Of a stretch of 64,000 nucleotides of DNA, positions 3,811 through 26,372 are shown piece after piece. Under the pieces are notes generated by a model. That model did no database searches and was not told the DNA's origin. It saw only the letters and a program-made list of their open reading frames with translations. The position numbers and the translations under genes are program-made. The stretch lies in sequence record PX104379.1; one strand, given 5' to 3'. The DNA comes from a phage. Every line of letters begins with the position of its first letter. The first letter of the stretch is position 1.

Positions 3811-3909
3811 TTAAAAATATTCGTAATAAATGTGAATACCAACCACTACCGCTGAAACCTGTGCAACCCACCACGCACAAGCAATAAGTACAGAATTCAA
3901 AATTTTCAT
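3811..3909 (-). CDS. micro-ORF, hydrophobic (32 aa)
   Basis: MKILNSVLIACAWWVAQVSAVVVGIHIYYEYF with GAGG RBS. Confidence 0.3.
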   Translation of the reverse strand: MKILNSVLIACAWWVAQVSAVVVGIHIYYEYF

Positions 3910-22477: not shown

Positions 22478-23128
22478 TTATTTTTCCTTTCTTATGAAGT
22501 TTTCTATCATATGTCTATAGCAGATATTAGGATAACCTGCCTTGACAGCTATTTTATTAAATTTTGTGCGCTTAGGTCTATTATTATAAACCCATAATTC
22601 ATAAAGCGCATCATAACTATTCCATATTTCTCCTCGCCTAGGATTTGGTAAACCATATCGAGGTGAATTTTTACCGCTAAATCTTCCTTTTCGGGCTTTA
22701 CTCATATTAGCCTTGGCTTCATCGGATATAATTTTACCTTTATGAGCTAGACGCATTTTGGCTTTAGTTTCTTCTGGGGTCTTTTTGCCTTTAATCCATG
22801 ACGGCTTGCCATATCTAGGATTATTTTCACCCGAGAAAAGAACAGAGTTTTGGATTTTAAGGGTTTCTATTAATCTACTTGTTAATTTAACACCTTTATT
22901 ATATCGCATTAAATTTACAGCATAATGCAATCCTCTCACATCTGGATATATTTTAGTTAATAATCTATGAGCTATAAAATGCTCACGCGCAGTTAACTCA
23001 ACAAGATTGTTTTTGTCATCTGCTCCTCCTATACATCTAGGAATTATATGATGGCGTTCTTTATATCCGCCAAGATGCCGGCATTTAGCTTTTGTAATTA
23101 AAGCCGAGTAAATTTTTTGGTAATTCAC
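22478..23128 (-). CDS. free-standing HNH homing endonuclease (216 aa), GTG start
   Basis: HNH motif YKERHHIIPRCIGGADDKNNLVELTAREHFIAH; repeated NPRYG(K/L)P modules; GTG start with AAGGA RBS. Confidence 0.75.
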   Translation of the reverse strand: MNYQKIYSALITKAKCRHLGGYKERHHIIPRCIGGADDKNNLVELTAREHFIAHRLLTKIYPDVRGLHYAVNLMRYNKGVKLTSRLIETLKIQNSVLFSGENNPRYGKPSWIKGKKTPEETKAKMRLAHKGKIISDEAKANMSKARKGRFSGKNSPRYGLPNPRRGEIWNSYDALYELWVYNNRPKRTKFNKIAVKAGYPNICYRHMIENFIRKEK

Positions 23129-23198: not shown

Positions 23199-23399
23199 AT
23201 GGTACAAAAATTAATGGCACTTGTTAATGCCATAAAAGGTAATAAAAAACGTATAGCTTTTACTATTTCTGCTATGGTAGGAATTTTACTCTGGAACTTT
23301 ATTTTATCACCAATTGCAATTGCGCATGGTGTTAATATTCCAGTAGTTACTCTTGATACATTCGTAGATCTAGCATTTGCTTTAGTTGGGTTAATTTAA
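23199..23399 (+). CDS. plus-strand small membrane protein (66 aa), convergent with gene 61
   Basis: Strong SD AAGGAGG 7 nt before ATG; two hydrophobic segments; one of the only plus-strand ORFs that does not overlap another CDS. Confidence 0.5.
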   Translation: MVQKLMALVNAIKGNKKRIAFTISAMVGILLWNFILSPIAIAHGVNIPVVTLDTFVDLAFALVGLI

Positions 23400-24424
23400 A
23401 TCTTGGCATATTTAGATAGCCGCATTTTAGCCATTAACCCCTGGGCAATATTATTTTTCATATATTCCATAATTTGTTCAGGGGTTGCACCTTCCTTTCT
23501 AATCATATCATTGACATCTTTTGATTTCCAGGGAGATTTATCCCAAAACATAACCCTTTCTCCTGCATCAACTAATTTAGTCATTCGTTTGATAGTGTCA
23601 GGGTGACGAGGTTCATTATCTAAAACCCACACTCGTCTATCTTTAAATGGAACAATTTCTAGGTCTAATTGACCACCCGTAATAGCTATACCATTTTCAA
23701 TAAAAAGTGAATCTATAGGTCCTTCTAGAACATATACATCACCATCTTTAACTCGTTCGACTCCATATATTTTTGTTGCCTCAGGATAAGCTTTGATGGT
23801 GATATATTTTTGAGGAGCATCTTTCTTTAATGCACGTCCTTGAAAAGACTCAGCTTTTCCATTAGCATTATAAATTGGAATAACAAGACGAGGCTCAGAA
23901 ATTTCCTTTTTGTATGTTCCCGGTGCTATGCTATTAACTAATTTAGGCCATTCAGTTGTAAACCAAAGATATTTCCATTTATCCTTTGGAATACAACGAG
24001 CTTTTACATATTTTATAATTGGATGGTCTTCCGCCAGTTTATCTAATCTAACACATGACGGAAGAGATTTAATTATTTTCTTCTCAAGTTGTTTAGGAAG
24101 TTCTTTAGGTTTTTCTACTGGACGACTTTTACCTTTTTCTTTTCTTATTTCAAAGATATACTCACGATATAAATCAGGTTCAAACTCCTTTAAATATATT
24201 CCGATTGGTGCATGATAGTTACAGTTATAACAATGAATATTTCCTTCATTATTATCACCATAATACCATCCACGAGCTTTATTCTGGTCGGTTTTTGAAT
24301 CTCCACAAACAGGGCATCTAAACCGTAATTTAAAAGTTGAACTATTATTTACTTGTGTGAATTTAGGTAAATGAGCTAATGCACGATACGCAAACTCATT
24401 ATCAATCCAAGGTATTGATGACAT
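23396..24424 (-). CDS. 61: DNA primase gp61
   Basis: 342 aa as T4 gp61; N-terminal zinc-binding Cys cluster; Toprim-like centre. Confidence 0.9.
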   Translation of the reverse strand: MSSIPWIDNEFAYRALAHLPKFTQVNNSSTFKLRFRCPVCGDSKTDQNKARGWYYGDNNEGNIHCYNCNYHAPIGIYLKEFEPDLYREYIFEIRKEKGKSRPVEKPKELPKQLEKKIIKSLPSCVRLDKLAEDHPIIKYVKARCIPKDKWKYLWFTTEWPKLVNSIAPGTYKKEISEPRLVIPIYNANGKAESFQGRALKKDAPQKYITIKAYPEATKIYGVERVKDGDVYVLEGPIDSLFIENGIAITGGQLDLEIVPFKDRRVWVLDNEPRHPDTIKRMTKLVDAGERVMFWDKSPWKSKDVNDMIRKEGATPEQIMEYMKNNIAQGLMAKMRLSKYAKI

Positions 24425-24426
24425 TT

Positions 24427-24591
24427 TTACTCTTCTTTTTCTTTAGATTCCTCTTTTTTCTTTTTAGGAATCTGTTCAGGACCTTTATTTACTACAGCAC
24501 CTGATGTTGTTCCAGTAGAGATATTTTCAGGATTACCACCTGAATCTCCAGCAACCATATCTTCTTTAATAAATTCTTTATATGTTTTCAT
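24427..24591 (-). CDS. hypothetical acidic/basic protein (54 aa), 61.1-like
   Basis: MKTYKEFIKEDMVAGDSGGNPENISTGTTSGAVVNKGPEQIPKKKKEESKEKEE; not in the ORF track. Confidence 0.45.
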   Translation of the reverse strand: MKTYKEFIKEDMVAGDSGGNPENISTGTTSGAVVNKGPEQIPKKKKEESKEKEE

Positions 24592-24592
24592 A

Positions 24593-24949
24593 TTAACCTC
24601 TATTCATAAAAGCATTAAAAATTTGGTCATCAATAGATGGCACAGTAATATTTTCTGCATCATTTAGCAAATCATTAATTTCATCGGATAGCATAACACA
24701 TGTACCTTTATTTCCTGTAATTGTTACTGCGCAATTACGAACGTTTTCTTTATTAAATTTTAGGTTAATATTTTCGTAATGAAAATCCTTTAATGCTGAA
24801 TATATTTTTAAAATAAAATTGTCTTTTACTACAATAAACCCAACCTCACTATTAAAACGTGGTTCATGGAAACTGTAATAAACCTTTTCATCTATAAAAT
24901 CGTATGAAATTTTTTCCATTTTTAAATATGAAAATTCAGAACTATACAT
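24593..24949 (-). CDS. hypothetical protein (118 aa), shares C-terminus with the next ORF
   Basis: Ends SIDDQIFNAFMNRG; 3' end lies inside a ~48-bp direct repeat. Confidence 0.5.
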   Translation of the reverse strand: MYSSEFSYLKMEKISYDFIDEKVYYSFHEPRFNSEVGFIVVKDNFILKIYSALKDFHYENINLKFNKENVRNCAVTITGNKGTCVMLSDEINDLLNDAENITVPSIDDQIFNAFMNRG

Positions 24950-24950
24950 A

Positions 24951-25577
24951 TTAACCTTTATTCATAAAAGCATTAAAAATTTGGTCATCAATAGAAACAT
25001 TTACTTTAGACTGTTTTTCTGATGGTAATTCATATCCACATATTACAATTTTGTGATCAATATCAAAATACACAGAAGCAATATGATTAATGATGTTTTC
25101 AGTAAAGTCTAAATCAACATCAATATCTTTTTGACCACAGCCCAAAGGATAAATAATGCGAGTAATTCGATTATCTTTAACAAATATTCCACCGACATAC
25201 TCTGTGCTGCGTTTAAAGTCTACACGCCGACGAAATGAAAAATATTCAGGCTCTCTATGAGCTCGGCTCATAGGACACAACGAGTAACTAGAATAAGAGA
25301 TGTCAAATCCTACACCTTCGATATGAGCCAAAGTGTTATGATTAAACCAATTATAATCGTACGCCAAATCCATTAGATTATAATATGTAAAAGGCACCGG
25401 ATTAACATCATTAGTCACAAGCATGTAATTAGCAACTGCTATAATTTCATTGTTTTTAACGAATACAAACCGTGATTGATGCGAATGACCTGGACCCGCG
25501 TTTTCACGATTAATGATATAACACTGGGCACCTTTATATTTGTATGTATCTCTGCACTTGTGCATTTGATAGAGCAT
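24951..25577 (-). CDS. hypothetical protein (208 aa), 61.2-like
   Basis: Ends SIDDQIFNAFMNKG. Confidence 0.55.
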   Translation of the reverse strand: MLYQMHKCRDTYKYKGAQCYIINRENAGPGHSHQSRFVFVKNNEIIAVANYMLVTNDVNPVPFTYYNLMDLAYDYNWFNHNTLAHIEGVGFDISYSSYSLCPMSRAHREPEYFSFRRRVDFKRSTEYVGGIFVKDNRITRIIYPLGCGQKDIDVDLDFTENIINHIASVYFDIDHKIVICGYELPSEKQSKVNVSIDDQIFNAFMNKG

Positions 25578-25870
25578 TATTCACCTACCACTTCAGCGAT
25601 GATATTTTTATTATTAAAGTTTTTATCACAATACAGAACATAATTATACTGCATTACACCACCAGACTTAAGCTGTTTTTGTACTTCAGCTTTCATTTCA
25701 GGACGATCACGCTCAACGATATTCATAATATCCGCTTCAATTTGAGTTTCAACTTCAGTCTGATCTGCAGTCATAGACCATTCGCACAAATCTTTATCAT
25801 AACCTGCCATAGCAGGCTGAGCAGCACAAGAAGCTAAAGCAAAAATTGTGGCAAAGATAAATTTTTTCAT
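25577..25870 (-). CDS. sp: Sp (spackle) periplasmic protein
   Basis: 97 aa as T4 Sp; signal peptide MKKFIFATIFALASCAAQPAMA. Confidence 0.75.
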   Translation of the reverse strand: MKKFIFATIFALASCAAQPAMAGYDKDLCEWSMTADQTEVETQIEADIMNIVERDRPEMKAEVQKQLKSGGVMQYNYVLYCDKNFNNKNIIAEVVGE

Positions 25871-25930: not shown

Positions 25931-26188
25931 TTATTTTAAAACTTCTGCGTAATCACATGTTACAAACTGTTTCTCTAGCTTGACGATTTTACGAAAGTAT
26001 CTTTTGCATTGGCGAATCTGCCGCTTCGTAGGGCGAACAGCAAACTTAATAAATTCCACTCGACCAAATGGAGGGCTTTCTTCTGATGGAATATCTAACA
26101 CCAATTCCCACGTATCTGCAATAAGTGCTTTGAATTGCGTATTTTTCCTGACATTATACGGAGTAGGTTTAAATAAAACAATATGCAT
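25931..26188 (-). CDS. hypothetical protein (85 aa)
   Basis: ORF track. Confidence 0.5.
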   Translation of the reverse strand: MHIVLFKPTPYNVRKNTQFKALIADTWELVLDIPSEESPPFGRVEFIKFAVRPTKRQIRQCKRYFRKIVKLEKQFVTCDYAEVLK

Positions 26189-26189
26189 A

Positions 26190-26372
26190 TTATCCTCGGC
26201 AATCTACTTCACATACTTTCTTGTCATCAATGAAAGCTTTAACTAATGCTTTATTAACTTCAGCATATTGAGTAGTAGCCCATTGAACGTCATCTTTCAT
26301 CATTGTGGTTTCTTTAGTAAACATGCTTTCATTCTTAAACCACCCCATAAAAACTACCTTTACCAATTCCAT
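26190..26372 (-). CDS. dmd: Dmd (antitoxin against RnlA/LsoA)
   Basis: 60 aa; sequence and position just upstream of gene 41 as T4 dmd. Confidence 0.8.
   Translation of the reverse strand: MELVKVVFMGWFKNESMFTKETTMMKDDVQWATTQYAEVNKALVKAFIDDKKVCEVDCRG

Follow-up and report, generated by a model that had tools for sequence, protein, structure and literature searches.

Two neighboring genes of a T4-like phage end in the same short stretch of DNA, and we think it likely that this stretch is a selected gene-end junction that is present twice, has been homogenized by exchange and mediates the seamless insertion or deletion of a 358-bp unit. The window, by which we mean the whole 64,000-nt stretch of DNA that was analyzed (record PX104379.1), is a Tequatrovirus genome, 99.6% identical at this locus to phages EPIMRB01 and AUBRB02. 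The repeated stretch is a real yet fairly ordinary recombination joint in a known anti-defense gene cluster of a well-studied group of phages. It is neither a fresh duplication nor a new kind of element.

The order of genes on the minus strand, set against annotated RB32 and T4, is 41, dmd, 61.4, sp, 61.2, a 118-aa ORF, 61.1 and 61. The 118-aa ORF (24593..24949) is of the RB32 ORF033c type and falls in PHROG 4122; its neighbor, gene 61.2 or adfA (24951..25577; 208 aa), belongs to Pfam PF23813. Upstream lies sp (spackle, 25577..25870), the upstream border of the variable cassettes, whose stop overlaps the adfA start in the sequence TAATG. Beyond it are a 61.4/tifA-type gene (DUF7279) and dmd (25931..26372), the other members of what is called the anti-toxin-antitoxin island, a name the region owes to its genes dmd, tifA (61.4) and adfA, every one of them inhibitory to a bacterial toxin (PMC9391042). 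On the other side are 61.1 (24427..24591; 54 aa), which is translationally coupled to the repeated junction, and, transcriptionally downstream, the DNA primase gene 61 (23396..24424). With all these genes on the minus strand, both ORFs are transcribed before the primase gene. The first-pass annotation had put them 'downstream of gene 61', which is right insofar as they lie to the right of it on the plus strand and wrong as a statement about transcription. PADLOC returned no hits. Two further ORFs near gene 61 deserve a mention. One, of 216 aa (22478-23128, minus strand), combines an HNH-like N terminus (HHIIPRCIGG...) with a NUMOD3 motif (E 8e-7) and resembles a homing endonuclease that entered the genome close to gene 61; the matching position in RB32 carries no gene. 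The other, of 66 aa (23199-23399, plus strand), sits between gene 61 and its opposite-strand neighbor, has no Pfam match and is kept in RB32, RB69 and others as ORF030w/ORF029w.

A repeat search places the two copies of the direct repeat at 24589-24637 and 24947-24995, start to start 358 apart. They are 49 nt long and identical at 48 of the 49 positions (98%), the sole mismatch, C in one and T in the other, falling at position 12 of the repeat. The mRNA-strand sequence reads TCT ATT GAT GAC CAA ATT TTT AAT GCT TTT ATG AAT A(G/A)A GGT TAA T ATG, and so runs from the Ser codon of a shared C-terminal tail through 14 tail codons to the stop, a single base and the ATG of the next gene. Copy 1 (24589..24637, minus strand) is made up of the 14 tail codons of the 118-aa ORF (SIDDQIFNAFMNRG), TAA, T and the start codon (ATG) of 61.1; copy 2 (24947..24995, minus strand) is made up of the 14 tail codons of adfA/61.2 (SIDDQIFNAFMNKG), TAA, T and the start codon (ATG) of the 118-aa ORF. 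The first-pass annotation had described a direct repeat of about 48 bp at this spacing, identical C-terminal tails on both ORFs, and a repeat that covers last codons, stop and next start. All of this survives closer inspection, at both copies and for both endings. The identity breaks off sharply at each edge of the repeat. The 64-kb window contains its 35-nt core at exactly two places, against none in 100 shuffles, and when 24400-25600 is compared with itself by BLASTN the repeat is the only significant self-similarity (E 6e-20; next-best match E 0.004). The arrangement recurs in other records. The interval 24300-25700 is covered to at least 80% in one place by 79 of 647 matching phage records, and the best 40, RB32, RB33 and RB18 among them, cover it completely at 97-99.6% identity; with so many records carrying the full interval, the two copies are no assembly artefact of the window.

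The number of repeat copies varies among relatives. T4 has 61.1, one copy of the repeat and the adfA body, with no 118-aa ORF; the comparison with T4 61.1-61.2 that the first-pass annotation proposed thus finds a single copy between the 61.1 and adfA bodies, in T4 (our locus L002) and likewise in loci L005, L006 and L014. In the window, in RB32 and in other genomes there are two, with a spacing of 358 bp. The variable segment is thus bordered by direct repeats, of which exactly one marks the joint in the shorter allele. The unit that comes and goes, 24638..24995 (minus strand), consists of a 309-bp unique body plus one repeat copy and is missing from T4-type genomes. The 647 matching records gave 807 places, which implies two repeat copies in some 160 of them; the adfA body is present in 468 records, and the 118-aa body in 295 (297 places). 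Extrapolating from an even sample of 60 rows of the 647 ranked records, we estimate that both genes occur together with a T4-type adfA in about 85 records (this window and RB32, for example) and with a 210-aa adfA allele that has an RB69-like N terminus in about another 85 (F1); adfA occurs without the 118-aa ORF in about 140 (T4), the 118-aa ORF without adfA in about 140 (slur07), and neither gene in about 20 (phiC600P9). Relatives thus differ, rather than all having both genes with identical ends. The one-copy joint of T4 and the presence of all four gene combinations within Tequatrovirus support the reading of the repeat as a recombination joint, and with it the earlier suggestion of a recombination substrate for module shuffling.

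How would such a joint work? The two direct copies match in orientation and in reading-frame context, so that a recombination event joining them, whether inside a single genome or across the genomes of co-infecting phages, would delete or insert the 358-bp unit seamlessly. A crossover within identical coding and initiation sequence leaves intact ORFs and translational coupling in every product. T4-type genomes (adfA only) and RB32-type genomes (adfA and the 118-aa ORF) could in this way be interconverted through the repeat, either by deletion from a two-gene ancestor or by entry of the unit into a T4-type genome. In T4 itself, microhomologies of 6-10 bp suffice for documented deletions and amplifications of this very region (PMC9391042), and set against these a homology of 49 bp is ample. 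We infer T4-type recombination between the direct copies as the mechanism.

The distribution of adfA alleles fits a loss that depends on homology. The 210-aa allele, present at 2152-2784 of locus L019 and in some 85 further Tequatrovirus records, is mosaic: roughly the first 55 residues resemble RB69 AdfA, the remainder T4 AdfA. Among the 40 records that match this allele best, all 40 contain the 118-aa ORF, none has the allele directly beside 61.1, and the allele's tail differs from the other copy at three positions. The deleted form turned up alongside the T4-type allele alone, and there the tail matches the other copy at 48 of 49 positions. One detail has two explanations. In every two-gene genome with the T4-type allele the adfA tail ends in KG or RD, and in T4 it ends in RG; these endings would follow from a crossover on the right-hand side of the variable site, and from a separate history as well. 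The repeat does not account for everything at the locus. In the classes that lack adfA the junction reads sp-TAA-TTAGAGGTTAAT-ATG, which shares only the 14-nt TAGAGGTTAATATG with the repeat, and these classes cannot be derived from this genome via the 49-bp repeat. A deletion through an sp/adfA microhomology (TGAATAA) was considered as their source and rejected, the junction it predicts being different from the one observed. In slur07, 14-nt repeats around the 118-aa ORF could offer a route to the empty class.

Amplification, which the first-pass annotation had also envisaged as change in copy number, found no such backing. There are only two extra places for the 118-aa body among the 295 records that have it (297 places). 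The multi-copy record we inspected is the Yersinia phage phiD1 (L018, HE956711), in which 1501-2460 contains four repeat copies, two copies of the 118-aa ORF and a 33-aa fragment. Riddled with Ns as it is, this stretch probably reflects a repeat-induced misassembly, and we rejected it as evidence of amplification.

The shared tail is a conserved peptide in its own right. In the window it is S-I-D-D-Q-I-F-N-A-F-M-N-(R/K)-G; across families it is S(I/V)DDQIFNAFMN(R/K)G, and it is invariant in at least three of them, namely AdfA (Tequatrovirus, Mosigvirus), the 118-aa family, and a family of 122-146 aa (PHROG 8539; Dhakavirus and others) that has nothing else detectably in common with the AdfA and 118-aa families. 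(A resemblance between the N terminus of a 145-aa member of this third family and AdfA, KxPNAQxY, is a lead only, with a BLASTP E of 0.084.) Scans with a degenerate version of the tail pattern, which gave 13 loci in IMG/VR and 11 in metagenome contigs, led in every locus examined to the adfA-61.1 locus and nowhere else. Comparison across genera shows 5-7 differences in the 49 positions of tail DNA, and those in the Dhakavirus-type tail are synonymous throughout. Between AdfA orthologues tail dS ranges from 0.34 to 2.3, and tail dN is 0 for F1 and Ac3, 0.03 for T4 (the R/K change) and 0.08 for RB69 (I/V and R/K). Selection on the protein maintains the peptide.

The DNA of the tail has a second job. 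Its final pair of codons, AGA/AAA GGT, also provides the next gene with its Shine-Dalgarno sequence and is followed by TAA, T and ATG. In copy 1 the Shine-Dalgarno sequence is GAGG, within the Arg-Gly codons; in copy 2 it is AAGG, weakened by the lone C/T difference. The dmd-to-61.4 junction (26186-26197, minus strand) is likewise built of Arg-Gly codons that form GAGG, then TAA-T-ATG, and in the window as a whole junctions like RG-TAA-T-ATG number six, against 0.43 expected. Related ones are at 3907, 17348 and 55365.

Might constraint alone, then, explain the repeat, the copies being alike through selection on the peptide and on the ribosome-binding site, stop and start, and the indel arising from unrelated events with no role for recombination? 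The invariance of the peptide in three families and the recurrence of RG-TAA-T-ATG at dmd/61.4 and elsewhere in the window lend this account some weight, as does the fact that about 16 of the 49 nt are either non-coding signal or codons constrained by the Shine-Dalgarno sequence. The synonymous sites of the tail speak against it. They drift between genera (5-7 differences, dS up to 2.3), which means that selection on the peptide does not fix the nucleotides, and the chance of arriving at identical synonymous codons by independent codon choice is P ~5e-4. The junction has no significant RNA fold (z-scores -1.1, +1.7 and -0.96) that would add a constraint at the nucleotide level, and the T4 junction falls exactly within the repeat. 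We judge constraint alone to be unlikely.

The explanation we prefer adds exchange to selection. Synonymous sites are free and orthologous tails drift, so the near-identity of the two copies points to recent exchange between them, and gene conversion or crossover is the probable source of the nucleotide identity seen in the window. Other genomes bear traces of the same kind. In locus L015 the 119-aa gene ends in a tail with the GATCGTC variant, elsewhere typical of the 210-aa AdfA tail. In locus L043 both tails share an Asn-to-Lys change and several codon choices that are absent from Tequatrovirus. The copy that adjoins 61.1 is canonical in the Tequatrovirus genomes inspected, L015 and Shfl2 excepted, whether it ends adfA or the 118-aa ORF. 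Homogenization is not universal: the tails of Ac3 differ at 7 of 49 positions.

The first-pass annotation had called the locus a segmental duplication, and here we part company with it. No nucleotide similarity extends beyond the 49 nt. Body against body, adfA and the 118-aa ORF give a best BLASTN E of 0.26, and a codon alignment within the window puts the bodies at dS 2.5 and dN 0.98 and the tails at dS 0 with a single R/K change. A recent segmental (tandem) duplication was accordingly rejected, the bodies being saturated at synonymous sites, and the repeat is better described, we believe with fair confidence, as one gene-boundary junction present twice than as a duplicated segment.

A more elaborate version has adfA duplicated recently in tandem, then truncated at its 5' end and driven apart by a very fast arms race that spared the tail alone. 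To weigh it one has to ask how the 118-aa protein is related to AdfA. The counterpart of the 118-aa ORF in RB32, ORF033c, is annotated 'similar to gp61.2', the ORF adjoins adfA, and at full length it matches AdfA with a BLASTP E of 2e-8 and the Pfam AdfA profile at positions 113-211 with E 7e-8 and 32.5 bits (cut-off 27). These two signals come largely from the tail. Once it is removed, the PHROG cross-hits between the 118-aa ORF and AdfA vanish, which counts against a recent duplication, and what is left of the body match is weak, if collinear: a BLASTP E of 0.013 and, by hhalign, a 23% probability with P 9e-4 over 57 collinear columns that align residues 23-79 with AdfA 109-170. The 118-aa ORF is half the length of AdfA and has Cys at the aligned specificity position. 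AlphaFold2, working from shallow alignments, gave weak models (pLDDT 57 for the 118-aa ORF, 68 for AdfA) that agree only on a terminal helix at the tail, and Foldseek searches of the models against BFVD and PDB found no match with E <0.001. Recent duplication cannot account for a body dS of 2.5 and a tail dS of 0 together. The paralogy must moreover be ancient, since diverged members of 119 and 125 aa occupy the same locus in other T4-like phages. A recent duplication of adfA thus strikes us as quite unlikely, and we read the 118-aa protein as probably an ancient relative of the C-terminal half of AdfA, going by sequence comparison.

As for a self-mobile element, in which the 118-aa ORF would travel in a homing-endonuclease or PeSL cassette and the repeat would be its insertion scar, the presence/absence polymorphism with direct repeats at its edges, the abundance of homing endonucleases in T-even genomes and the NUMOD3 ORF 1.5 kb away (22478-23128) would suit it, but the unit's one ORF has no nuclease domain, the repeat contains no promoter-like or terminator-like site (overall counts in the scan equaled the shuffle expectation) and no significant stem-loop, and it is, unlike a target-site duplication, coding sequence common to orthologues in other genera, so that we give the idea next to no credence.

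The 118-aa ORF is a real gene under purifying selection, as shown by a dN/dS of ~0.24 against a 77%-identical variant. It belongs to a narrow family, which makes up five 90% clusters in a set of 5.8 billion proteins. A profile search of 1.84 billion representatives turned up the two distant members of 119 and 125 aa, which also bear the tail, with minor substitutions. Literature searches found no description of the ORF or of the shared tail, and the literature searched held no experiment on anti-DarT activity of the ORF. The protein may have an anti-toxin role. With ~295 sequenced phages to draw on and purifying selection at work, it makes a cheap candidate for another counter-defense factor. 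Of the leads from this locus, it and the C-terminal helix that three families share unchanged look the most useful.

The 208-aa ORF is gp61.2, or AdfA, anti-DarT factor A. It matches PF23813 over residues 1-208 on profile positions 1-211 (E 4.6e-135; 448 bits, cut-off 27), is 95% identical to T4 gp61.2 and lies between sp and 61.1/61, as expected for adfA in T-even genomes. The allele in the window is of the T4 type and has His at the specificity position that R164H defines (ENIINHIAS; RB69 numbering 164). According to the accounts of LeRoux et al. (2022) given in PMC11257639 and PMC9391042, the R164H change lets RB69 AdfA bind DarT1; deletion of adfA from T4 is reported to have no DarTG1 phenotype (PMC11257639). 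With His at the aligned position, the AdfA of the window may bind DarT1. The mosaic 210-aa allele has Asn at this position, instead of His or Arg. Compared with each other, the N-terminal and C-terminal halves of AdfA give a weak match (E 0.006-0.014), as an internal duplication might.

Across lineages the tail junction precedes four different genes: 61.1, the 118-aa ORF, an RB69ORF033c-type gene and a TifA-like gene, the last 41% identical to 61.4 of the window (E 3e-13). Two loci are of interest in their own right. In L043, a Logan contig (SRR14369232), 693-2262 holds sp, a 145-aa gene of the third family (tail SVDDQIFNAFMKRD) and a 119-aa gene (tail AIDDQIFNAFMKRG) that is a distant relative of the 118-aa ORF; directly after the second tail is the TifA/61.4-like gene just mentioned, an uncalled ORF of 73 aa (1875-2096). 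In Dhakavirus C6 (L020, MW679410), the stretch 2310-2503 shows TAATATG after the tail of ORF33 (122 aa) and then an ORF, unannotated in the record, that starts MFVLTQF, as does the TifA-like ORF of L043.

Such variety invites a bolder idea, which we offer as possible, if doubtful. The 14-residue helix might be a portable docking module of at least three otherwise dissimilar kinds of small island protein (AdfA, the 118-125-aa family and the 122-146-aa family), whose bodies would decide which toxin or host factor is hit, with the helix DNA, ribosome-binding site, stop and start included, serving as an in-frame joint and the 118-aa protein as an anti-toxin factor. If that were true, the helix DNA would let phages swap, stack and drop bodies with the operon unbroken. 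A clamp-binding, PIP-like tail was also considered and rejected, the spacing failing to match. Whatever its function, a tail that is invariant in three families is a specific peptide to mutate when probing how AdfA acts. The repeat is also a concrete example of how T-even phages could add and drop accessory genes seamlessly, at a locus within a cluster of three proven inhibitors of toxin-antitoxin defense (dmd, tifA and adfA). There is a practical side, too. At a site like this assemblies can collapse or expand, phiD1 being a case in point, and engineered phages may lose a gene.

How does all this compare with what is known? AdfA and the 118-aa ORF have in common a C-terminal peptide, a locus and a weak collinear body match; they differ in that the 118-aa ORF, stripped of its tail, is undetectable as an AdfA by PHROG or Pfam. 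The PeSL cassettes of T4-type phages, reportedly described by Arbiol et al. in 2010 as non-coding units of early promoter and stem-loop, are similar in being short conserved gene-boundary sequences in plastic regions for which a part in modular shuffling has been proposed. The repeat in the window, in contrast, is coding sequence and a translational-coupling junction, with no promoter or stem-loop. The modular theory of Susskind and Botstein is said to invoke conserved 'linker' or boundary sequences in the mosaics of lambdoid phages, and there the likeness is that of a conserved boundary joined to different neighbors in different genomes. The difference is that our boundary is itself a selected peptide, and its conservation therefore need not serve recombination. 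A further comparison is with the events in the T4 anti-toxin-antitoxin island described by Srikant, Guegler and Laub (2022; PMC9391042). They concern the same region of dmd, tifA and adfA, and there too short direct repeats delimit the rearrangements and leave a single copy behind where the ends join. Those repeats were arbitrary homologies of 6-10 bp and the events were selected in the laboratory, whereas the repeat in the window is 49 bp long, coding and conserved across genera, and its variants are natural alleles.
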